Position numbers and translations under genes: made by a program. The notes below the pieces were generated by a model. It made no database searches and was not told where the DNA came from. It saw nothing but the letters and a program-made list of their open reading frames with translations. This document shows positions 16,784 through 64,000 of a stretch of DNA of 64,000 bases, in pieces. The first letter of the stretch is position 1. Each line of letters opens with the position of its first letter. Source of the stretch: a candidate division CPR3 bacterium GWF2_35_18. Its GTDB lineage: Bacteria; Patescibacteriota; CPR3; GWF2-35-18. The stretch covers positions 5,315-69,314 of the forward strand of contig MESW01000002.1 in the NCBI GenBank assembly GCA_001771135.1, written 5' to 3'.

Positions 16784-17004
16784 TCAATTCAAATTATTTT
16801 GCATAATAAAAGAGAGGGCTAGGGGAGTATGTGGGTGCGAGTGAAAAAAACATACTGCCCTAGGGGGCAAAGAGAGAAAGAAGCATATAGATACGGTTTT
16901 AAATTATAGGGTCAGATGTACGTATCTATCTGAGAAGTTTTTGTCTAAACTATTTTTATTTAGGAAACTTCTTATTAAATGCATGAAGGATAAAAGATCC
17001 ACAA

Positions 17005-17062
17005 AAAGGGGTCTGCGACATTGTGTGTCGTAGATGCGTGGTCAACAGACCCCCTTTTGCGT
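17005..17062 (-). terminator. Rho-independent terminator for the minus-strand operon 18221->17069
   Basis: Read on the minus strand: CAAAAGGGGGTCTG ...loop... CAGACCCCTTTTTG, an 11-12 bp stem followed by a T-run, immediately 3' of the stop at 17069. Confidence 0.6.
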
Positions 17063-17068
17063 GTGTGG

Positions 17069-17362
17069 CTACATTTGATCCAGGTTGAGGATCACCACGA
17101 TGATGCTCGAGAGCGTCTCGCGGAGATACTTTTCCCAGGACAAAGGATACCGATTGGTGTAACCCCAGCACTGAGCAACTTCAACTGGACCGATATATTG
17201 GTCAGCTTGAGCTATCAGTTCGCCAAGGTCTTTCCTGGGGATCCTCTTCACAAGTTGTTTAACCACTTCTTCGGGGTTACCGATTCCATGGTCTTGCGTC
17301 TTGTTGACTTCTTTTGCAACCTTCCGAAGAAGTTTGCATAGAGTCATTTTGTTTGTAGCCAT
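17069..17362 (-). CDS. Hypothetical protein (97 aa) in GC-rich island 1
   Basis: Strong RBS GGAGGTG before the ATG. About 50 % GC, versus about 33 % in the surrounding sequence. No recognisable family. Confidence 0.55.
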   Translation of the reverse strand: MATNKMTLCKLLRKVAKEVNKTQDHGIGNPEEVVKQLVKRIPRKDLGELIAQADQYIGPVEVAQCWGYTNRYPLSWEKYLRETLSSIIVVILNLDQM

Positions 17363-17627
17363 GAGCCACCTCCTTTGGAGCCACTGTTTGGCACAGTGCC
17401 AGATGAGTCCCGGGCCACCGGAAAGGACTCAGCCCTACGAAGCGATTAACAAGGTCAAAGAAATTGGTGATATATGACCTTTCGCTGTCCGGTTTAGAGG
17501 TGGTGGAGAAAAAACCTAGCTCTACGTGGTATCATGGCCGACGGAATTTTTCTACCGCCAGGCTGGTGGTCCGTTTGAGCGTACCCATACTTATCCGCAA
17601 CAGAGCTAGGGATTGGAAAAACAGGAT

Positions 17628-18221
17628 CTAGGTGTTTTCGAATGGATTCTGCCAACCAAGACCTTTGGCATTTAATGAATTTAAAATAGTATCGTAAGCC
17701 TTACGTGTAAGTCCTTGCTTTCCGTCAAGACAACCTTCAGCTTCTCCATCGGTAGCGGCCTCGAGCGTGTGGCAAATAGAAATTGCTTGATTTATGGGTA
17801 GGTGAAGAGTGATTATTTGACCGAAGAATTTTTCGATGTCAGCGGGATTTGAGTAATGCTCATCTTTCAGAGCTAGGTACAAAATCGCGGAACCCGTTTC
17901 GTCGCTCCAGAGAACAATCTCCAACCGAAAATCGTTCCGTCCAGATTCGTTTGTGAAAACCGCGATTCTAGTTGTGTATCCAGTTTTGCGAACGACATCA
18001 AATGCTTCACGTACGACTTGATTGAAAACCATCATCGTAAAATCGTGAATTCCGATGTAGTCGTCGGCGGCTGGGGTGCCGCAAAAGAGTTGGAAGACAA
18101 CCTGACCATGCTCAGTATAGACCGGCAAGAAGTTGCCTTTGATTCCACTTGTTCGCAATCCGTGCATGCCCAGAATTTCTTGGGCTTTAGTTAAAAGGAT
18201 GGTTTTAGGTTTTGTGTTCAT
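17628..18221 (-). CDS. Hypothetical protein (197 aa; 212 aa if the upstream ATG at 18266 is used) in GC-rich island 1
   Basis: GGAGGA RBS before the ATG at 18221. GC-rich codon usage. No recognisable motif. Confidence 0.55.
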   Translation of the reverse strand: MNTKPKTILLTKAQEILGMHGLRTSGIKGNFLPVYTEHGQVVFQLFCGTPAADDYIGIHDFTMMVFNQVVREAFDVVRKTGYTTRIAVFTNESGRNDFRLEIVLWSDETGSAILYLALKDEHYSNPADIEKFFGQIITLHLPINQAISICHTLEAATDGEAEGCLDGKQGLTRKAYDTILNSLNAKGLGWQNPFENT

Positions 18222-18623
18222 AGGTCCTCCTCGAACCTGTCCTGCTTCCTCGGCAGGAGTGAACATTTGAATGGTTGGTTGAATTGAATTGGTTGGTGTT
18301 AAACGAACGAATTCTCGAATTTTTCGATAGACCTTCCTTTCTTTTTCTTTGATTTTGGATAGGCGAGCTTGTGAGCTCGAATCTTTTTGGCTTTATGCCA
18401 ATGGGATTAGTGAAGGAAGAAGAGTAATTTCTTTCCTCGCTATTCCCATTGGGAAAAGCCATTTTCAAGGCAATAACCTTGATGCATTATGCTTCAGTTT
18501 TTAAAGAACAATGATGATTTTTACCACTAAAAAATAAATGGAAAAACCACAAATAATGGCGGGAAGTATATCATATATTGATGTGAATATCAAAACTATG
18601 GGATTGAAGTTGGAATTCTGAAA

Positions 18624-34323: not shown

Positions 34324-34599
34324 GTGAGTACTAAACTTTATGTCGGTAATCTCGATTACGGGATGAATGACGAAGCTTTAAATACGCTTTTCGCACAAGC
34401 AGGAACCGTTACAAGTGCTATGGTTATCATGGATCGATATTCTGGTCGTTCCAAGGGTTTTGGATTTGTAGAAATGGGAACTGAAGATGAAGCGCAAAAA
34501 GCCATTGAAATGTTCAATGGTAAGGAACAAAATGGACGAGCTTTAGTTGTTAACGAAGCGAGACCAAAAAAACCACGTACCAATGATTTCCAACGCTAA
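34324..34599 (+). CDS. RRM-type RNA-binding protein
   Basis: GTG start with a GGAGGTG RBS. RNP-2 LYVGNL and RNP-1 KGFGFVEM. C-terminal basic tail. Confidence 0.85.
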   Translation: MSTKLYVGNLDYGMNDEALNTLFAQAGTVTSAMVIMDRYSGRSKGFGFVEMGTEDEAQKAIEMFNGKEQNGRALVVNEARPKKPRTNDFQR

Positions 34600-36099: not shown

Positions 36100-36322
36100 T
36101 TTTTATCCTTTCATTTAATTGAAACCAAAATATATCATAAAACAGGGGAAACAGTAAACTGTTCCTGACTGCTTGCCTTTTGGGTCGATTTTTAGTACAA
36201 TCGCGTGGTAATAGCCCCCCTTTTGAGGGGTCTTTTTGTATAGATCGCACTTTTAAATCATGAAATTATAATTTCTTCCAAAAAAGTGAATGATTGATTA
36301 GAAAAAACGGAGAAGCTCTTGC

Positions 36323-36366
36323 GGGAGCAAGATGAAAACAATTTTTATTGTTTTCATCTTGCTCCC
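36323..36366. repeat. Perfect 19-bp stem hairpin (GGGAGCAAGATGAAAACAA / TTGTTTTCATCTTGCTCCC) at the left edge of GC-rich island 2
   Basis: Read directly. A 6-nt loop. Lies between divergent genes and is followed by GC-rich sequence. Confidence 0.7.
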
Positions 36367-36522
36367 CCTCAGAGCAGCGCAAAAGCGCATTTTACCCATC
36401 CGTTTTAGTTCCGTTTTGCTAAAGCAAATTCGGAGAAGGAGTTGATCTATCAGAAAATTGAATAAACTGTTTTCAACCATCAATCAATTTAACCAATCCA
36501 ACCAATTTTATGGGAGAAAATT

Positions 36523-37086
36523 ATGAAACCTCAATCGTATCGATTTACTCAACCACGTCAAACCGTGGGTTATGCCGCATGTCAGGACGACCGCGTGCAG
36601 GCCGATGTTCAAGTGATTTTAGCTGAAATGGGCTTAGCCCTTGGACATTACTGTGCGATTAACCTGGCTGGTGGCGCTGGTGTTCCGGATCTTATTGATC
36701 GTTTGCTTCCCGAACTGGAAGTTGATCACGAGCACCACAATCCCCAGGGTTGGTTACTGATCGGCCACGAGGAATGCGCCGCCGGTGCCAATCTAGATAC
36801 TCTGTTTACCAATCTGGGACAGATTAAGCAACTCTTTCCGGATATGGTGGGTAAGCTTGTGATTGTTTGGCAGTTCAAGGTCGTTGGTTACCAGGAGAAG
36901 GAGTTTTGGGGTCATGTGTACCTCAATGTAGACGCCGAAACCTCGGTCACCTGGTACATTGTAGTTGGCGATGCGAAGGAGAGCGCGAAAGCGTTCGTAC
37001 TTACAATGACTGGAAAAGATCTTCCCGGTCCTCATATTCTCTCCCGTGACTATACTGATCATGATGTGACGGTGATCGTCGCCTAA
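36523..37086 (+). CDS. Hypothetical Cys/His-rich protein (187 aa) in GC-rich island 2
   Basis: About 52 % GC with GC-rich third positions. RBS GGGAGA. No family recognised. Confidence 0.55.
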   Translation: MKPQSYRFTQPRQTVGYAACQDDRVQADVQVILAEMGLALGHYCAINLAGGAGVPDLIDRLLPELEVDHEHHNPQGWLLIGHEECAAGANLDTLFTNLGQIKQLFPDMVGKLVIVWQFKVVGYQEKEFWGHVYLNVDAETSVTWYIVVGDAKESAKAFVLTMTGKDLPGPHILSRDYTDHDVTVIVA

Positions 37087-37174
37087 AACAATTTCTCAAT
37101 CATGTGGCGACCGTCTGTCGCAAGACCTGTCCTTCTGGACGGTCGCCACATCAATTTGTATTTTGGAGGAACCT

Positions 37175-37417
37175 ATGGAAACTGAAGTTGTTACCCTTGC
37201 CGGGTATCGGATAACCGTTACGGACAATGGTGAGAAAACCAATCGACTAACCCGCTATACTTGGAAAGTTTACGATCCAAGTGGTGAACCTATTGGTAGA
37301 TTCACTGCAAACTTACAGAGCAATAAATTGCATGAGTTCAAAGAAGTACTTTCTACACGTTTTGAAGATCAACCATCTTTGTTACAGCAGTACGTTTCAC
37401 TGGCGGCCGCTCTGTAA
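37175..37417 (+). CDS. Hypothetical protein (80 aa) in GC-rich island 2
   Basis: RBS TTGGAGGAA before the ATG at 37175 (track start 37163 is a TTG). Confidence 0.5.
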   Translation: METEVVTLAGYRITVTDNGEKTNRLTRYTWKVYDPSGEPIGRFTANLQSNKLHEFKEVLSTRFEDQPSLLQQYVSLAAAL

Positions 37418-37432
37418 ACAGGAAGGAGGATT

Positions 37433-37549
37433 ATGAACGTCGGTTGGGCAATTGGTGTCGGAGCACTAATTTGGGCTATTGCTAGTCAGATGACACAGGT
37501 TTGTTGGGCAATTGCTCAAATTCAAAAGAACAAGAACAATCGTTCGTAA
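37433..37549 (+). CDS. Candidate small hydrophobic peptide (38 aa, MNVGWAIGVGALIWAIASQMTQVCWAIAQIQKNKNNRS)
   Basis: Strong RBS AGGAAGGAGGA 4 nt upstream. Three WAI(G/A) repeats spaced 9-11 residues apart. Third gene of island 2. Confidence 0.4.
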   Translation: MNVGWAIGVGALIWAIASQMTQVCWAIAQIQKNKNNRS

Positions 37550-37747
37550 GACAACAGAAGAAAGGGAGAGAGATTCCAAGGAAGTGAAACATTGATCGTG
37601 CGCCTCTGGTGCATAACATCGCTGCTTCCCTTCCTTTCTTCTTCCTCGGAATAAAATAATTTTTTCCCGAGAAAGAAGAATTTTTTGCAGCGTTTTATAT
37701 AAGCAAGATATTTGAGCTTTGAGTTTTTTTATCATATACTAATCTAT

Positions 37748-52963: not shown

Positions 52964-53548
52964 GTTCGAATTGTAGGAGATTAGATCATAAAAGTCAAAA
53001 AAGTGGAGACAATTTGATTTTTGGGTGATATCAAACTATGGGTTACTATGTGGTTATTGTCACAGCAGTAACATTAATATGTTTAATATAGGACATAAAT
53101 ATAATAAAAATATGGATATTGATTGTTATATAAGGGTAAAACTGTATTTATTGGTAATTATTGCACTTCGTTTGTACTATTATGGGTCTTGACAAATATA
53201 TTTGAATGTGGTAAGGTAATATTGTCCTTTCTAAAAAGGCAATCGTTCATCTCCTAAATTGGGGGGCTGACAAGGTTAATTGGGACGCCGTATGTAGCAA
53301 CAAATGGTGCCGCGATTAGCCCTGATAGCCCCTCAATTGCGTTTCTATAGTAATTTTTCAAAAACTAGAATCCCCCGGAATAGAATATTCTAGAAGTATC
53401 TATCAGCTTTATAGTGTAATTAGTAGGCCTATAAATATTCTGTGTAATTAATTAGGGTATTTTATATTTCCCTTATATATAAATGTATGATTTAAATATA
53501 CTAAAATTTATAGTAAAGTTATGGTATTAAATGTATATCCTATAGTGC

Positions 53549-53577
53549 TTGACAAATACTTAAAAACATGATATACT
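53549..53577 (+). promoter_or_regulatory. Consensus sigma70 promoter P2 (TTGACA-17 nt-TATACT)
   Basis: -35 at 53549-53554, a 17-nt spacer, -10 at 53572-53577. Confidence 0.65.
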
Positions 53578-53583
53578 ATTTTT

Positions 53584-53660
53584 GTTAAGTTGGAGAGAGA
53601 AGAATATATTCCATTTTTTTAAAAGCTCTCTGAATCGATAAGAAGAAGGAGTTTTTTTTG
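53584..53660 (+). ncRNA. Candidate small RNA 1 (about 77 nt): the 5' end reads GUUAAGUUGGAGAGAG, followed by a hairpin and a terminator
   Basis: Starts about 7 nt after the -10 of P2 and ends at the T8 run at 53652-53659. No ATG or RBS-coupled ORF. Paralogous to candidate sRNA 2. Confidence 0.45.
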
Positions 53661-53779
53661 CACTTAAAATATTAGAAAAAATACATTTAAAGATTAGTAG
53701 GTAATCCGAAGTGGAGGAGAGACTCTCCAACAAACAAACTATTTCTCCTCTGCTTCATATTATCTATTAACCCATAGTA

Positions 53780-53808
53780 TTGACATTTATTAAAAATTAT
53801 GCTATACT
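53780..53808 (+). promoter_or_regulatory. Consensus sigma70 promoter P3 (TTGACA-17 nt-TATACT)
   Basis: -35 at 53780-53785 and -10 at 53803-53808. Confidence 0.65.
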
Positions 53809-53814
53809 ATTTAT

Positions 53815-53890
53815 AGTTTGTTGGAGAGAGCAGTAAAAGCAGGAATCTTACTGTATAAAAGAGAGCTCGCCAACGCGCGAGCTTTTTTTG
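53815..53890 (+). ncRNA. Candidate small RNA 2 (about 76 nt): 5' GUUUGUUGGAGAGAG, an internal CAGUAA/UUACUG hairpin, and a terminator GAGCUCGC-CAAC-GCGCGAGCU + U7
   Basis: Promoter-to-terminator unit. No ORF. Shares its 5' motif with sRNA 1. The reverse complement of that motif also occurs at about 53712-53726. Confidence 0.45.
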
Positions 53891-53950
53891 TCGCACCTTA
53901 TAACAAATTACTGAAGTCATGGTTAAAGAATTTATGAGAGGCTTATAACT

Positions 53951-53979
53951 TTGACAAATTATATTATTTGGAGTATATA
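53951..53979 (+). promoter_or_regulatory. Consensus sigma70 promoter P4 (TTGACA-17 nt-TATATA)
   Basis: -35 at 53951-53956 and -10 at 53974-53979. A structured region follows (TTGGGGCT...AGCCCCAA hairpin). Confidence 0.55.
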
Positions 53980-54113
53980 GAAATGTATTTCCCCAAAATA
54001 CTGGAAATATATATGTTGGGGCTTAAAAATTATATAGCCCCAAGCAATGAGAGAGGTGGAATAGCTATCTAAGTAGCTTATTTATAGCTTCTCATATCCA
54101 AAAGCGGTTTTTT

Positions 54114-54171
54114 GTTATTCTGAGCGGTATGTGAAAGATCATTAGAAATTTCTCACTGCGTTCAGAATGAC
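54114..54171. repeat. Palindromic repeat family, copy A (GTTATTCTGAGCG ... CGTTCAGAATGAC)
   Basis: Arms pair with G-U wobbles if transcribed from the + strand. Sits just upstream of the GC-rich block that starts at about 54.4 kb. Confidence 0.6.
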
Positions 54172-54958
54172 AGAAAATAAAAGAATCGGAACTACGAAAA
54201 AGAATTGAAACGACAGAAATAGATGTGGAAGAAGAGGTACGTGTTTAGAACTTTAAAAAAAGAATATTTCGTTAATCTCCGGAAATAATCCGGAAAATTT
54301 TAAATTCTTCTTAATGAAGGAAGATTGCAGTTACTGCAAGGAAGTAAACTGGAAGCTATTGATTTAGTATCTAGTTCGCTTTCTTGCAGGAAGTTGAGGT
54401 CTGTTAGGAAAATCTTTCCGCTTTCATAAGTCGCAAGCGCAGAAAGGATCTGCAGATTTTCAAACCAGAATACTCAGACGGTTGGGTAATAGTCAGGTTG
54501 ACCCTGTGAATCCAAACGAAGTACTGCAAAAAGTGTCGTTCCCGGTTTTTCGGGCCTGAAGGGTTGTACCCCGTAGGCGCCTGGGTAGGACCCAATTATA
54601 GGTCCGCCTAACCGGAAAAAGACCTCTTCCTTTGGAAGGGGCATATCGTGCCTGTCAGGTAATAGGCCTTGCAGTTTTTGTAGAATTTATCCGAAGCTGC
54701 TTTCAGAGCAGTCTTAGATAAGCGGATAGAGGAAGCAAAAATAAAGAGGCTGAAAAACTTGAAGGGCGAAATTGGACAATTTCTTTCAACTCCCCAAACC
54801 GAAAGGGTTAGTAACTTGAGAGGGAACGGTCTCCATTTGTTTTTCTGGTTCCAGTCCAGCTGCCGAATACAGTAGGCAAAAGATGAAAGGACTCAGACTG
54901 AACTTTCAAGAGTGAAACACTCTCTTAGGCAAGGGGTAGTATTCAAGGAGAATGATAT

Positions 54959-56341
54959 ATGGAGACTAAAACCTCCACCCAGAGCCGCAAGGGGCTCTAT
55001 AATATCTTTGCGTCCGTTATCGTAGCCCTGATGCTCGTTGCCGTTTTCTTCGGCTTCGTTGGCACTGCGGCCGCTCAGGAGTCCGTTCCTGACTACCAGC
55101 CCGTGGTTGACCCTTATCCGGTCACCGTGGGCGTTACCACCGCGATCAGCCTCAGCCCGGCACCGACCGCGACGGCCGACATCCACTGGACGATCAACGC
55201 CTCTGATGGTAGTCTCGTGCTGGATACCACCGAGTTCACGGTGACGCATGTGTTCACCAATGCCGGCGATTACACCGTTGGTGTGACGATCAGCGACACG
55301 AATGGCGTGTATGTGAATGCCTGGTTGCTGAACGTGGAAGAGCCGGTTTTGACACCTGCTGCTGCCTTGACCAACCTGTTGACCGCTGTGATGGCGCCTG
55401 CAAGCCCTGATAAAGCCGCTGATGTAGCTGAAGCTGTTGCCGATGTTCAGCGCGCTCTGGGCGTGGTTGTTCGCGGCGCCGTCCAGTCCAATGAAGGCGG
55501 TTCGATCGAACTTCGCCCTGTCCAGCCGATTGCGGCAATGAGTGAAGAAGCTCGCGCTTTGGCTATGGACACTGCTGCTGGCACCGATCTGCACTTCGCA
55601 TGGGGTGCTGGATGGCACAATCATCAGGCCGATTTGGGCGCTGGGACTCAACTGTTGAGCGGCGTCTTCTTCGACTCTGACGATCCGGCCTATTTCGGCA
55701 CCACCGAACCGATCTCTGGCGGCCTCTGGGTGTCTTCGATGTACACCCCCAACGTTAGCCTGGAAACGGCCGAATATACCACGACCTTCACTTCTACCCA
55801 GTGGGTAGACAGCGATGGCAACGGTATGTTTGACCTTCTGGCGGTTGGTAGCCCCTGGGATGGTTCTGTCGTCACCATGAGCCTCGATTACGAAGGCGTA
55901 TACACCGAGACCTGGAGCGTCCAGATCGGTATGGAACCGAAACTGATTAGCACCGAAGGCACCAGCCCTGCACCGGCGACCGCCGATGCTTTCCGCACCA
56001 GCGCTGCTGCTGATACATACCCATTCGTACCCGGTCAGGGTTGGGATGTAGCTGCCAATACGGCTTACACGGACACCGTCTTCTACGGCGCTTACTTCGG
56101 TGGCGCTGATTTTGGCGGCGTCTGCAATGACCACTGCGTGGTTAGCTATGCTGGGCGGAGCTATGAATCGACCGATGCTGATGGCAACGGGACGTACGAT
56201 TTCTTCCTGCCCGGCGCTGGTTCTGCCGAAATCGAAGGCCCTGGGGCTTGGGAATTCACCGTCACCGATGACGATGGCAATACCGAGACCTGGATCTTCA
56301 TCCTGGGCGCCACTCCTCAGATCGTCCCCGCTGGCGAGTAA
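54959..56341 (+). CDS. GC-rich (about 58 % GC) secreted protein with Ig/PKD-like and DxDGNG calcium-binding-like repeats
   Basis: AAGGAGA RBS. Signal anchor with an AAAQE cleavage-like site. DSDGNGMFD and DADGNGTYD motifs. Third codon positions are GC-rich, unlike neighbouring genes. Confidence 0.65.
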   Translation: METKTSTQSRKGLYNIFASVIVALMLVAVFFGFVGTAAAQESVPDYQPVVDPYPVTVGVTTAISLSPAPTATADIHWTINASDGSLVLDTTEFTVTHVFTNAGDYTVGVTISDTNGVYVNAWLLNVEEPVLTPAAALTNLLTAVMAPASPDKAADVAEAVADVQRALGVVVRGAVQSNEGGSIELRPVQPIAAMSEEARALAMDTAAGTDLHFAWGAGWHNHQADLGAGTQLLSGVFFDSDDPAYFGTTEPISGGLWVSSMYTPNVSLETAEYTTTFTSTQWVDSDGNGMFDLLAVGSPWDGSVVTMSLDYEGVYTETWSVQIGMEPKLISTEGTSPAPATADAFRTSAAADTYPFVPGQGWDVAANTAYTDTVFYGAYFGGADFGGVCNDHCVVSYAGRSYESTDADGNGTYDFFLPGAGSAEIEGPGAWEFTVTDDDGNTETWIFILGATPQIVPAGE

Positions 56342-56480: not shown

Positions 56481-56890
56481 TTGTCTTTTCATCTTAGTCT
56501 GGTTTTATCTTGACCAGTCCCAAAGCCTATCATTAAGTTGATAGATCCTCAGGAAAACAAGATAAGTGAAGGATTTTTCCTTCCTGGAGTTATAGAGAAA
56601 ATAAAGAATCTATAGCAAGACTCCAAGATGAGGCAATTCCTCATCGAGCTAGTTTGCATGAAAATGCAGTTAAAATTGGTTTGGTCATTGTGAAGGTCTG
56701 TTGTTTTTGTATTGAAGATACATTTATTGTCACCCTAAAAGTGACCTGTCCTTATCATCTTCAAAACACCAACCAACAAAACAACACAATCATCAACCCA
56801 ATCTAGCTTCCCTCTTGTGCTTAGCACCTGATGAAGGCTTGGGAAGATCAAGCCGAAAGAGGAAAGTTAAATTATATATATTAAATCAAA

Positions 56891-56918
56891 AGCCACCCTG
56901 AAAATGGGTGGTTTTTTT
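56891..56918 (+). terminator. Rho-independent terminator that ends an ORF-less transcribed region (about 56540-56918)
   Basis: GCCACCC-TGAAAAT-GGGTGGT followed by TTTTTTT. Confidence 0.65.
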
Positions 56919-56934
56919 GTGCCTTTTTGTATTT

Positions 56935-57038
56935 TGTCATGCTGAACGAAGTGAAGCATCTAGGTCTAAAGACCGCAGTATTGGTAACTGTGCGTTCTGC
57001 CTTTGGCAGAACTAGATCCTTCGTTAAACTCAGGATGA
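56935..57038. repeat. Palindromic repeat family, copy B (GTCATGCTGAACGAAG ... CTTCGTTAAACTCAGGATGAC) with two internal small hairpins
   Basis: Read directly. Sits just downstream of the GC-rich block. Its right arm abuts or overlaps the 3' end of the GIY-YIG gene. Confidence 0.6.
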
Positions 57039-57341
57039 CATAAATAAATTATTAAAATTAGGATTGATAGTCTTTATAAGGCTAATCTTTTTCTCCCTTT
57101 TCCAACCTTTGATTTTCTTTTCTACTTCTATTGCTTCTGTAGGAGAATTAAATTCTTCCATCCAAATTAATTTATATAGTTTGTATTTCTTAGAGAAGGA
57201 ACTTTTTATTATACCTTTTGTATGTTCTTCAATTCTTCTTTCTAAATCATTGGTTATTCCGGTATATAACACAGAATTTGTATGATTAGTAATAATATAA
57301 ACATACCAACTGAAGTTATTCATATTATTTAAGAATATCAT
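57030..57341 (-). CDS. Stand-alone GIY-YIG nuclease domain protein
   Basis: WYVYIITNHTNSVLYTGITNDLERRIEEH (GIY...YIG...R...E motifs). The true start may be the internal ATG at 57323 (MNNFSWYVYII). Confidence 0.72.
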   Translation of the reverse strand: MIFLNNMNNFSWYVYIITNHTNSVLYTGITNDLERRIEEHTKGIIKSSFSKKYKLYKLIWMEEFNSPTEAIEVEKKIKGWKREKKISLIKTINPNFNNLFMSS

Positions 57342-59919: not shown

Positions 59920-59948
59920 AGAACTAGATAATAAGTAGATAACAAAAA

Positions 59949-59985
59949 AGCCCCTGGTTTTGATATCAAAACCAGGGGCTTTTTC
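59949..59985. terminator. Bidirectional rho-independent terminator
   Basis: AGCCCCTGGTTTT-GATATC-AAAACCAGGGGCT, flanked by an A-run and a T-run. Confidence 0.75.
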
Positions 59986-60373
59986 TATTTATATTCCTTA
60001 TTCGGCTTGAACTTCCCAAGCCAGCGGTTCAATTACTTGAACGACTTTGTTTAGATGAGTCTAAACAATCTTCAGGTGCTACTTTGCCCCGCCAAAGGCG
60101 GGGGCACATAAGGAAAGGTAGGGAGAGGAGATAGAGTTTGTGAGGTTGGTGTGTGAAGATGTGAAGAAAAGACCAAGATTTGGTCTCACAAATTGTTCTA
60201 TCTCTCTCCCTAGCGGGTTCTTTAATCGCCAAAAGGCGACTTTCGGTGCCCACGGGGTTTATTCCGTGTTACATTGTTCGGGTTTAGACCCGTGGGCACT
60301 TTTTAGCGGGGAACCAAGTCATGCGGTTCAAGGCATGTCTTTTTTAACACTATGCCCGCTTTCGAGCGACTTT

Positions 60374-61999: not shown

Positions 62000-62097
62000 G
62001 TCATCCTGAACGAATATTAAGGATCTAGAAACTATTAGTTTCGTAAGAATTCGCTTTGCTAGATTCTTCATTAACATTCAGAATGACAAAAGGGAAA
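62000..62097. repeat. Palindromic repeat family, copy C (GTCATCCTGAACGAATATTAAGGATCTAG ... CTAGATTCTTCATTAACATTCAGAATGAC)
   Basis: Read directly. Has a central AAACTATTAGTTT mini-hairpin. Lies 300 bp beyond the 5' end of the GC-rich minus-strand gene. Confidence 0.6.
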
Positions 62098-62976
62098 ACT
62101 ATTTATTCCCATGATTTCTCCCTGCAAGTATTTGTCTCAATCCTTTTTAAAGTACAAAATCTAAATGTCTTCTTCCGTTTCTTTATTTTCTTACTTTGTT
62201 TTTCTGTAGTTTCGATGGTTTTTAGCTAGAAGAAGGGGAGAGATTTTGTCTGGAGAGATTTTGATCTCTCCACTTCTTTTTAACCAAAAAACCGCCTCTG
62301 GATGGGAGACGGTCAGTGTACCAAAATACTACTTTAAAGCAGTATTTTAAGTCAATTGTCTCTCTCCAGACATATTCAGTTTGTTATTATGTATAATAGC
62401 ACAAATTAAGGGAAAAGTCAATACTATAGGATTAAATATGTGTTTTCTTTAAATTTGGAGAAAGATTAAGAAAAGGGGAAGAGGAGAGGGAAGAGCGAAA
62501 GAAATAAAAGTGGAAACAAGGATAGTTTCAAAAGAGCCAAGGCTCTCCTTTCTATGCCGGACCGTGGTGGTCTTTTGGCTTTTGAAAGTAGCTCCTTGAG
62601 TCTACACTTTTTATCTTTCAGTCTTCCCGTCCACCAAATTGGTGAACTACCGTTTGTATATATTTTAGTTGGATACGGTGGTCCAACCTCCAGAGGGGGG
62701 AGGGAATGGCAAGCTGATCAGGCACACATGGATTTTGTCCACGTTCGCGCGACTGTCATTCTCCTCCCCACTTGGAGTCAAAAATTGTGAGGTGTTTGTG
62801 CCACCAGAATTATCTACAGTCTCCTCAGGCTGTAAAGTTCAAAAGTGACACGAATCCCTATTCGTCCAACAATTTCTTAGACGAATTCGTCTTTCTCTTT
62901 TATCTTCTTTTTCTACCGAGCGGTCCGAGCAGGGTAAATCAATCAGAGAGAAAGGTCTCCCAATCACCTCAAAGCT

Positions 62977-63390: not shown

Positions 63391-63825
63391 GTTATTCTCC
63401 TTTCTCCATTGTGACGCCTTTAATGCGCGTCAGAATTTGAATTTACTTCCTCTCGGACCAGAGGAAGACGGGGGTTTTCCCCTTGATTTTCCGGTAAGGG
63501 AGAAAGGTTGTAAAAGCAACCCTTTTTCCTTACCAGAAAGAGAAAGGAGGAGGAATTTTTCCATCTTTTGATGGTAAATAATAAGGAACTTCTCCATAAA
63601 GTCGAAGTATAGTGTTGTTATTCTTCGAGCGAAGTCGAGAAGTACCATGATAATAGGTGCTAGATTGTTTTTCCTTTTCAGGCTTAAAGGAGAGGAGAAT
63701 CTGTGATTCGTTGGAGTGAATTTTAAACTCTCCTCACCTTGAGTCAAAAAAGGAATATTTTACTATTATAAATATGGGGAAAAGACTTTAAGACAAGCTT
63801 ATTATCTCTCTCCATATACAAAAAA

Positions 63826-63860: not shown

Positions 63861-64000
63861 ATATATATTTCTCCAACGAACAGGGCAGTATAGCATAAAA
63901 TGAAAGGAATGTCAATACTATAGGGTAAATGATTATCCCACTCTTGTGGTGACAAAAGAATCAGTTAAAATTGACACTAAATTACGTCATCAAGGAATTC

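Follow-up and report, generated by a model that had tools for sequence, protein, structure and literature searches.

The G-free, C/A-rich tract in the leader of island 1 is, judging by the homologous sequences, part of a conserved leader that is specific to one rare gene family and absent from Rfam. We read the tract, with moderate confidence, as a probably single-stranded segment of this conserved translation-initiation leader, where it would have a role at the RNA level. The leader is a small, previously undescribed cis-element of a general kind that is already known. To our knowledge, cis-regulatory RNAs have hardly been characterised in the CPR bacteria (Patescibacteria), which also lack genetics. 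The CPR3 island 1 leader, being conserved, with covarying hairpins and a defined start, provides a testable example of translational control for the Patescibacteria.

The island 1 gene family and its leader

The 64-kb stretch of DNA analysed here, referred to as the window, belongs to a genome of about 34% GC and contains several blocks of 43 to 58% GC. The ORFs of these GC-rich blocks show a coding-type codon-position composition, with GC3 values of 0.36 to 0.65 versus 0.21 to 0.31 in the ordinary genes of the window. Island 1 forms a minus-strand operon (18221-16850), and the features of its leader and coding region are as follows.

18565-18602, minus strand: promoter-like site TTGATA-17-TATACT with an upstream TG and a CCCATAGT box, identified by consensus, one of six such sites in the window
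18222-18557, minus strand: inferred 5' leader of the island 1 operon, roughly 335 nt, strongly structured (folding z-score -7.2)
18265-18303, minus strand: G-free C/A-rich tract of the island 1 leader (UUUAACACCAACCAAUUCAAUUCAACCAACCAUUCAAAU), the feature originally flagged, read from the sequence
18277-18287, minus strand: conserved core UCAAUUCAACC inside the tract, matching UCAA(N)UCAACC of the L100 and L102 leaders, found by regular expression
18240-18258, minus strand: hairpin P1, with the loop CGAGGAA showing GGA, from covariation and RNAalifold
18222-18238, minus strand: hairpin P2, whose loop and 3' stem carry the Shine-Dalgarno sequence GAGGAGG (18226-18232), from covariation
17628-18221, minus strand: first ORF of island 1, 197 aa from ATG 18221, start placed by homologue starts and Shine-Dalgarno sequence; the codon-position GC fits coding
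16808-17624, minus strand: 3' part of island 1, which also holds a 97-aa ORF (17069-17362), from blastn against L099

The transcription start of the operon is placed from the match to the promoter-like consensus only. All sequences quoted in the original prediction are present where it placed them, whereas the claim that the island 1 tract ends directly at an ATG has to be corrected. The ATG at 18266 lacks a Shine-Dalgarno sequence, and the real start is found 45 nt downstream, at the in-frame ATG 18221 behind GAGGAGG (duplex energy -11.6 kcal/mol). Relative to the query, the homologues P0011 (197 aa) and P0012 start at residues 16 to 17. The homologue N-termini and the Shine-Dalgarno sequence before ATG 18221 suggest that the 212-aa call from ATG 18266 is too long and that the product is probably a protein of 197 aa, which revises the annotated gene start from 212 aa to 197 aa. 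In all the public assemblies, the gene callers annotate a 212-aa product at 17628-18266 on the minus strand.

A word-indexed search had labelled the island 1 protein an ORFan, before an exhaustive HMMER search of 1.84 billion representative proteins yielded four relatives. The loci of three relatives (L099, L100/L101, and L102) were compared, two of which (L100 and L102) provide usable upstream DNA. Their proteins share 53% (L099), 38% (L100), and 32% (L102) identity with the island 1 protein, and the family genes at all three loci are GC-rich (0.46 to 0.52) in a background of 0.32 to 0.36 GC. The island 1 gene is a member of a rare GC-rich orphan family of CPR3 and similar bacteria. In L102, a tRNA gene (405-478) precedes the family member by about 140 nt; this tRNA gene has a 54-bit Rfam match and no ARAGORN call, and tRNA genes are a classic integration hot spot. 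The AlphaFold models for the proteins of both islands have mean pLDDT values of 51 and 40, too low for a fold search. All metagenomic copies of the genome are 99.5 to 100% identical and therefore carry no signal of within-population variation. A phage or defence origin was considered and rejected, the PHROGs, NCBIfam, PADLOC, and viral-contig scans being negative or giving chance matches only.

Both hairpins next to the start codon are supported by covariation. In P1, all aligned cells of the window, L100, and L102 sequences are paired (100%), and 2 of 4 pairs are compensatory. In P2, 92.9% of the cells are paired across four sequences, with three pairs changed on both sides, and sliding the 3' partners by one to three columns lets the pairing drop to 29 to 61%. 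RNAalifold independently predicts P1 as well as P2. Each hairpin presents a GGA in its loop (CGAGGAA in P1; GAGGA, within GAGGAGG, in P2) with a predicted unpaired probability of 0.98 to 0.99 (0.99 for the P1 loop). The two GGA triplets lie 19 to 23 nt apart, the second overlapping the Shine-Dalgarno sequence, and the AUG of island 1 is partly paired in the predicted fold.

The covariance model R1, built on P1 and P2, scores 53.7 bits at 18216-18262 and at most 12.5 bits in the rest of the window. On 0.9 Mb of other DNA, mostly from Patescibacteria, it matched only loci of the island 1 family. The leaders of the window, L100, and L102 have a common layout, in which the C/A tract with UCAA(N)UCAACC is followed by P1 (loop YGAGGAA), P2 (GAGGAGG), and the start codon. 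Across the sequences compared, the conserved elements, the covarying stems, and this layout are specific to the island 1 gene family. A search of the window and homologue leaders against Rfam, with gathering and E-value thresholds, found no family, the only match being the tRNA in L102.

The C/A-rich tract and the island 2 leader

Over its 39 nt, the island 1 tract has 12 C, 17 A, and not a single G; 32 nt separate its 3' end from the Shine-Dalgarno sequence downstream. Its predicted unpaired probability is 0.71, compared with 0.38 in the remaining leader sequence. The conservation of the tract is that of its 11-nt core, the comparison covering three leaders plus one 23-nt fragment. A regular expression built from the core of L100 and L102 has one match in the window, which falls inside the flagged tract at 18277-18287, making the UCAA(N)UCAACC core a single occurrence in 128 kb (the window on both strands). 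The distance from the core to the Shine-Dalgarno sequence is 44 nt in the window and 59 nt in both L100 and L102. The core is predicted to be unpaired with a probability of 0.81 in the window, 0.71 in L102, and 0.49 in L100, where it is no more unpaired than its surroundings (0.49 versus 0.48). In the L100 and L102 leaders, a small hairpin can form between the C-run of the tract and a G-run further downstream; the window lacks this hairpin. An HMM built from the L100 and L102 tract alone, a short and noisy model, did not rank the window tract highly. The recurrence of the core at a comparable position in the L100 and L102 leaders indicates that the island 1 tract is more than chance, and a regulatory role is probable.

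The original prediction described one leader common to islands 1 and 2. Part of this claim stands: across the whole window, the two leaders (18272-18297, minus strand, and 36475-36504, plus strand) are the only places with at least three AACCA in a span of 45 nt, compared with 0.21 +/- 0.46 clusters, and a maximum of two, in 200 shuffles. The two leaders also have the exact 10-mer CCAACCAATT in common, which occurs three times in the window versus 0.35 expected, and in C-minus-G skew the upstream regions of the two islands rank 1st and 5th of 60 genes. The patterns behind the AACCA cluster, 10-mer, and skew statistics were picked after seeing the data; the statistics being post hoc, we estimate a p value of roughly 0.01 to 0.05 for the association between the two leaders. 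The pattern GAGGAAGC-N6-24-GAGGAGG was observed once in the window, with zero expected.

The remaining statistics give little support to the proposed motif. The CAACCAA heptamer is not enriched in the window (14 matches versus 10.1 +/- 3.2 expected). The AAATTCG(G)AGAA box, proposed as a common feature of the leaders, occurs 8 times versus 8.3 expected, and its distance from the tract differs between the leaders (9 nt versus 33 nt). The proposed tandem repeats are not recovered either, as Tandem Repeats Finder reports none at either tract with a minimum score of 30. G-free runs of at least 33 nt are frequent in the window, with 83 observed versus about 49 in simulations, and the local alignment of the two 100-nt island upstream regions reaches a score of 26, ranking 10th of 1770 pairs.

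36470-36511, plus strand: G-free C/A-rich tract of the island 2 leader, similar to the island 1 tract only in its base composition; the leader lacks P1/P2

The island 2 operon (36523-37690) comprises three genes. Here too, the tract had been described as ending directly at an ATG, but the ATG at 36510 is out of frame, and the ORF starts 13 nt downstream, at 36523, after GGGAG. The island 2 tract is not clearly unpaired, with a probability of 0.45 versus 0.38 elsewhere in the leader; in the predicted fold, some of the tract pairs with 36288-36301 and the Shine-Dalgarno sequence pairs with 36266-36280. The rest of the common-leader claim is not supported: the island 2 leader lacks P1 and P2, and the covariance model finds only island 1 in the window. 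Paralogy of the islands was rejected, their proteins being unrelated. The likeness of the two leaders is best read as convergent composition, namely a C/A-rich, G-poor spacer before the Shine-Dalgarno sequence, and not as common descent.

The island 2 leader has several features of its own. A predicted long-range helix (36266-36280 with 36510-36526) sequesters the Shine-Dalgarno sequence and the AUG, a perfect 20-bp inverted repeat is located at 36323-36366, and a 38-codon out-of-frame upstream ORF beginning at 36510 overlaps the true island 2 start. A gene for a 91-aa RNA-binding protein of the RRM type lies 2 kb before island 2 (34324-34599, plus strand), and an RRM-like gene also adjoins the deacetylase homologue in L091.

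Other GC-rich blocks and the cassette question

Two further copies of the motif and a related palindrome had been proposed downstream in the window, where the following features are found.

56640-56925, plus strand: 3' module d56, following the PKD-domain ORF and ending in a terminator, structured (folding z-score -5.9)
59945-60235, minus strand: 3' module d60, following a 437-aa ORF, homologous to d56 and ending in a terminator, structured (folding z-score -10.7)
62632-62644, no strand assigned: CACCAAATTGGTG palindrome, a local hairpin stem in a structured spacer, from the predicted fold
53539-53602 and 53771-53833, plus strand, and 62396-62439, 63887-63936, 53010-53050, and 18565-18602, minus strand: family of promoter-like sites, identified by consensus

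The supposed third copy (56749-56805) is the 3' arm of a long hairpin in d56, and the fourth (60108-60172) falls within the loop and 3' arm of a long d60 hairpin. Both thus turn out to be parts of a separate repeated 3' RNA module and not leaders. The modules share CATCTTCA.ACACCAACC..ACAAA (z about 5) and the 29-mer GGCTTGGGAAGWTCAAGCCGAA.AGGAA (z about 10), which is conserved at 56836-56864 in d56 and at 59994-60022 in d60. The hairpin of this 29-mer, GGCUUGGGAAGWUCAAGCC, is almost identical in both modules. The ORFs before d56 and d60 are GC-rich and unrelated to each other, and neither module has an Rfam family or matches in viral contigs. A hammerhead ribozyme was considered for CUGAUGA...GAAA in d56 and rejected, as the second copy, which has a long insert, shows U for the conserved A15.1, and Rfam gives no match. 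The palindrome is an ordinary local hairpin stem, unrelated to the tract.

The starts of three other GC-rich ORFs (54959, 61687, and 63390), read directly, do not have the tract; the ORF at 63430-63747 (40% GC) was covered only by the upstream-region rankings. With the leader covariance model matching island 1 only, the idea of one motif marking the GC-rich islands is not supported. All non-coding flanks of the GC-rich ORFs fold much more stably than shuffled sequences, with z-scores of -5.2 to -10.7, compared with -2.5 for two ordinary spacers.

Around these ORFs, the window contains further elements. The leader of about 800 nt before the PKD-domain ORF (54959-56341) has a folding z-score of -7.4. 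The 2-kb stretch at 52964-54958, without an ORF of at least 80 aa, holds this leader, two sRNA-like units, and one MITE-like element. The six promoter-like sites are near-identical and strong (CCYATAGT-TTGAYA-N17-(TG)nTATACT), and four of them lead into units of about 60 to 110 nt with intrinsic terminators and GUUGGAGA(GAG) near the 5' end. These terminator-ending units, found upstream of GC-rich ORFs, look like small-RNA genes or leader attenuators. MITE-like palindromic elements (GTCATYCTGARCG...TTCAGRATGAC) are found at 54110-54175, 56940-57040, and 62000-62090, one of which abuts a small GIY-YIG gene (57030-57341, minus strand). In L099, a GIY-YIG gene with a similar MITE-like element adjoins the island-1-like cassette.

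The 3' part of island 1 is similar to L099, which comes from another organism. Three non-coding blocks (17515-17624, 16978-17072, and 16808-16887) match L099 (1295-1589) with 79%, 85%, and 96% identity in blastn. The proteins, by contrast, share 53% identity, none of the coding DNA aligns, and the two loci differ in their accessory ORFs and neighbours. With 79 to 96% identity in the 3' blocks versus 53% in the protein, the non-coding parts are better conserved than the cargo, and on this comparison the island 1 gene and its non-coding flanks appear to behave like a cassette. The genes flanking the islands were also followed for synteny. Relatives of the flanking Nramp gene in genome contigs share at most 69% identity and those of the 309-aa neighbour 43 to 48%, in both cases without synteny, and the 53% relatives of the flanking deacetylase in metagenome contigs lack the island.

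A broader version of the cassette reading takes the GC-rich orphan genes as the cargo of exchangeable expression cassettes. The leader (tract plus P1/P2) and the structured 3' blocks or modules would be conserved and selected, with the cargo being swapped or diverging fast, in an integron-like or antigen-variation-like arrangement without a recognisable recombinase. It is suggested by the 3' blocks that outconserve the L099 protein, by d56 and d60 following unrelated ORFs, and by the unusually structured flanks. We regard this version as improbable. Flanks that are better conserved than their GC-rich cargo may inform how tiny genomes acquire and express foreign genes.

The original prediction saw a cassette-associated regulatory or recombination motif. 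The regulatory half of this holds for the island 1 tract, which is probably regulatory. For the recombination half, neither an integrase nor a transposase or recombinase domain was found in any ORF of the 64-kb window, leaving the search for a cognate recombinase empty there, and no matching direct or inverted repeat is present at the far end of either island. The flagged motif is very unlikely to be the recombination signal of the cassette.

Readings of the tract and comparison with known systems

The tract could also be read as a DNA-level motif, that is, a recombination or attachment site or an operator marking GC-rich insertions, as originally envisaged. Consistent with this, the tracts are located exactly at the junction of the AT-rich leader and the GC-rich ORF, island 1 is cassette-like with non-coding blocks kept in the different neighbourhood of L099, and the L102 member adjoins a tRNA gene. 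However, the window encodes no recombinase, integrase, or transposase domain, the opposite ends of the islands have neither a motif copy nor a direct repeat, and the three other GC-rich ORF starts lack the tract. The conserved features are covarying RNA hairpins, which argue for a strand-specific RNA function, so that a DNA-level motif appears very improbable. A chance resemblance of low-complexity sequence deserves more weight. The tracts would then be an ordinary G-poor, AT-rich spacer, with only P1 and P2 being of importance, as suggested by the 83 long G-free runs, the unenriched heptamer and box, the missing tandem repeats, the modest rank of the leader 1/leader 2 alignment, and the failure of the L100 and L102 HMM to single out the window tract. 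We nevertheless consider chance rather unlikely, as the core recurs 44 to 59 nt before the Shine-Dalgarno sequence in three leaders from loci with protein identities of only 32 to 38%, it is found only once in the 128 kb of the window searched on both strands, and the AACCA clusters are confined to the two leaders versus 0.21 expected.

Two further readings place the tract in the RNA. As a Rho utilisation (rut) site, it would load Rho, and premature termination in the leader would silence the GC-rich genes unless masked by translation or a factor. Its 12 C and no G in 39 nt, with seven YC dinucleotides (counted from the quoted sequence), and its predicted single-stranded state agree with this, and leader-embedded rut sites of similar composition are known (PMC5314796, PMC6407284). 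The tracts are 39 to 42 nt long, though, compared with about 70 to 80 nt for typical rut regions, and ribosomes loading at the hairpins of the ribosome-binding site, only about 25 nt away, would be in competition with Rho. We regard a rut site as improbable. A GU-rich, GcvB-like small RNA acting in trans and co-regulating islands 1 and 2 would explain why CCAACCAAUU is common to both leaders. Several terminator-ending sRNA-like units are present in the window, a GU-rich arm of d56 (AAAUUGGUUUGGU) is nearly complementary to the shared 10-mer, and GcvB acts on C/A-rich enhancers likewise (PMC3879156). Against such a small RNA, when the 60 gene starts are ranked by duplex energy with the four sRNA-like units, the two leaders reach only places 8 to 56. 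The GU-rich arm of d56 is also predicted to be engaged within its own hairpin, and the pairing partner lacks conservation support. We judge a trans-acting small RNA to be highly improbable.

The reading as a single-stranded segment of the translation-initiation leader, which we prefer, suggests the following mechanism. From 5' to 3', a strong promoter would be followed by about 250 nt of stable hairpins, the C/A tract, P1, P2, and the AUG, and the leader would act on the mRNA. The unstructured C/A segment could serve as a landing or standby site for the 30S subunit, probably through ribosomal protein S1, and such a site beside a folded ribosome-binding site would raise initiation. A CsrA-like repressor could clamp both exposed GGA loops, including the one that overlaps the Shine-Dalgarno sequence. 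We infer both the enhancer or standby role of the tract and any role of a binding protein from the leader layout and from known systems. In enterobacteria, C/A-rich stretches before the Shine-Dalgarno sequence have been proven to enhance translation (PMC3879156), and unstructured flanks can override a structured ribosome-binding site through ribosome standby (PMC5934652).

Among the known systems, integron attC and related cassette sites resemble the tract in its position at the boundary of a foreign-looking gene cassette. The tract differs from attC in having no imperfect-palindrome structure, with no integrase found in the window, and from cassette recombination sites in that the motif is present at one cassette end only and the conservation follows RNA structure. 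The rut sites in the mgtA and corA leaders are likewise C-rich, G-poor, and unstructured leader RNA, whereas the tract has about half the usual length. The dual sites of CsrA/RsmA are similar to P1 and P2, with two adjacent hairpins that have A-GGA in their loops, the second over the Shine-Dalgarno sequence (PMC13443453, PMC7652899). The GGA loop pair fits the formal definition of a dual CsrA-type site, which we take only as a lead; a GGA loop over the Shine-Dalgarno sequence is a trivial outcome, since GGAGG includes a GGA, and the domain search of the ORFs in the 64-kb window found no CsrA.

Standby sites, as described for the MS2 coat cistron and tisB, have a single-stranded flank right upstream of a folded initiation region (PMC5934652). 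In island 1, such a flank is found beside the structured ribosome-binding site (0.71 versus 0.38), with a weaker signal in island 2. The difference is that the Shine-Dalgarno sequence is shown in a hairpin loop here and not buried, making the need for standby less obvious.

The C/A enhancers of the GcvB targets gltI, dppA, oppA, and yifK differ from the tract in some respects. ACA triplets are an active determinant of C/A-rich enhancers, as shown in Salmonella (PMC3879156), and by this feature both tracts fall short of GcvB-type enhancers, with a single ACA in the tract of island 1 and zero in that of island 2, by direct count on the sequences. The unit here is CAA/ACC (AACCA), the host is a CPR bacterium, and no GU-rich partner was found among the sRNA-like units of the window. 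The tract nevertheless has the form of such an enhancer, being rich in C and A, poor in G, and located within or shortly before the ribosome-binding site. Like the GcvB-target enhancers, it is G-poor, C/A-rich, and unstructured, up to about 45 nt upstream of the start region, and has a flexible distance to the Shine-Dalgarno sequence (PMC3879156).
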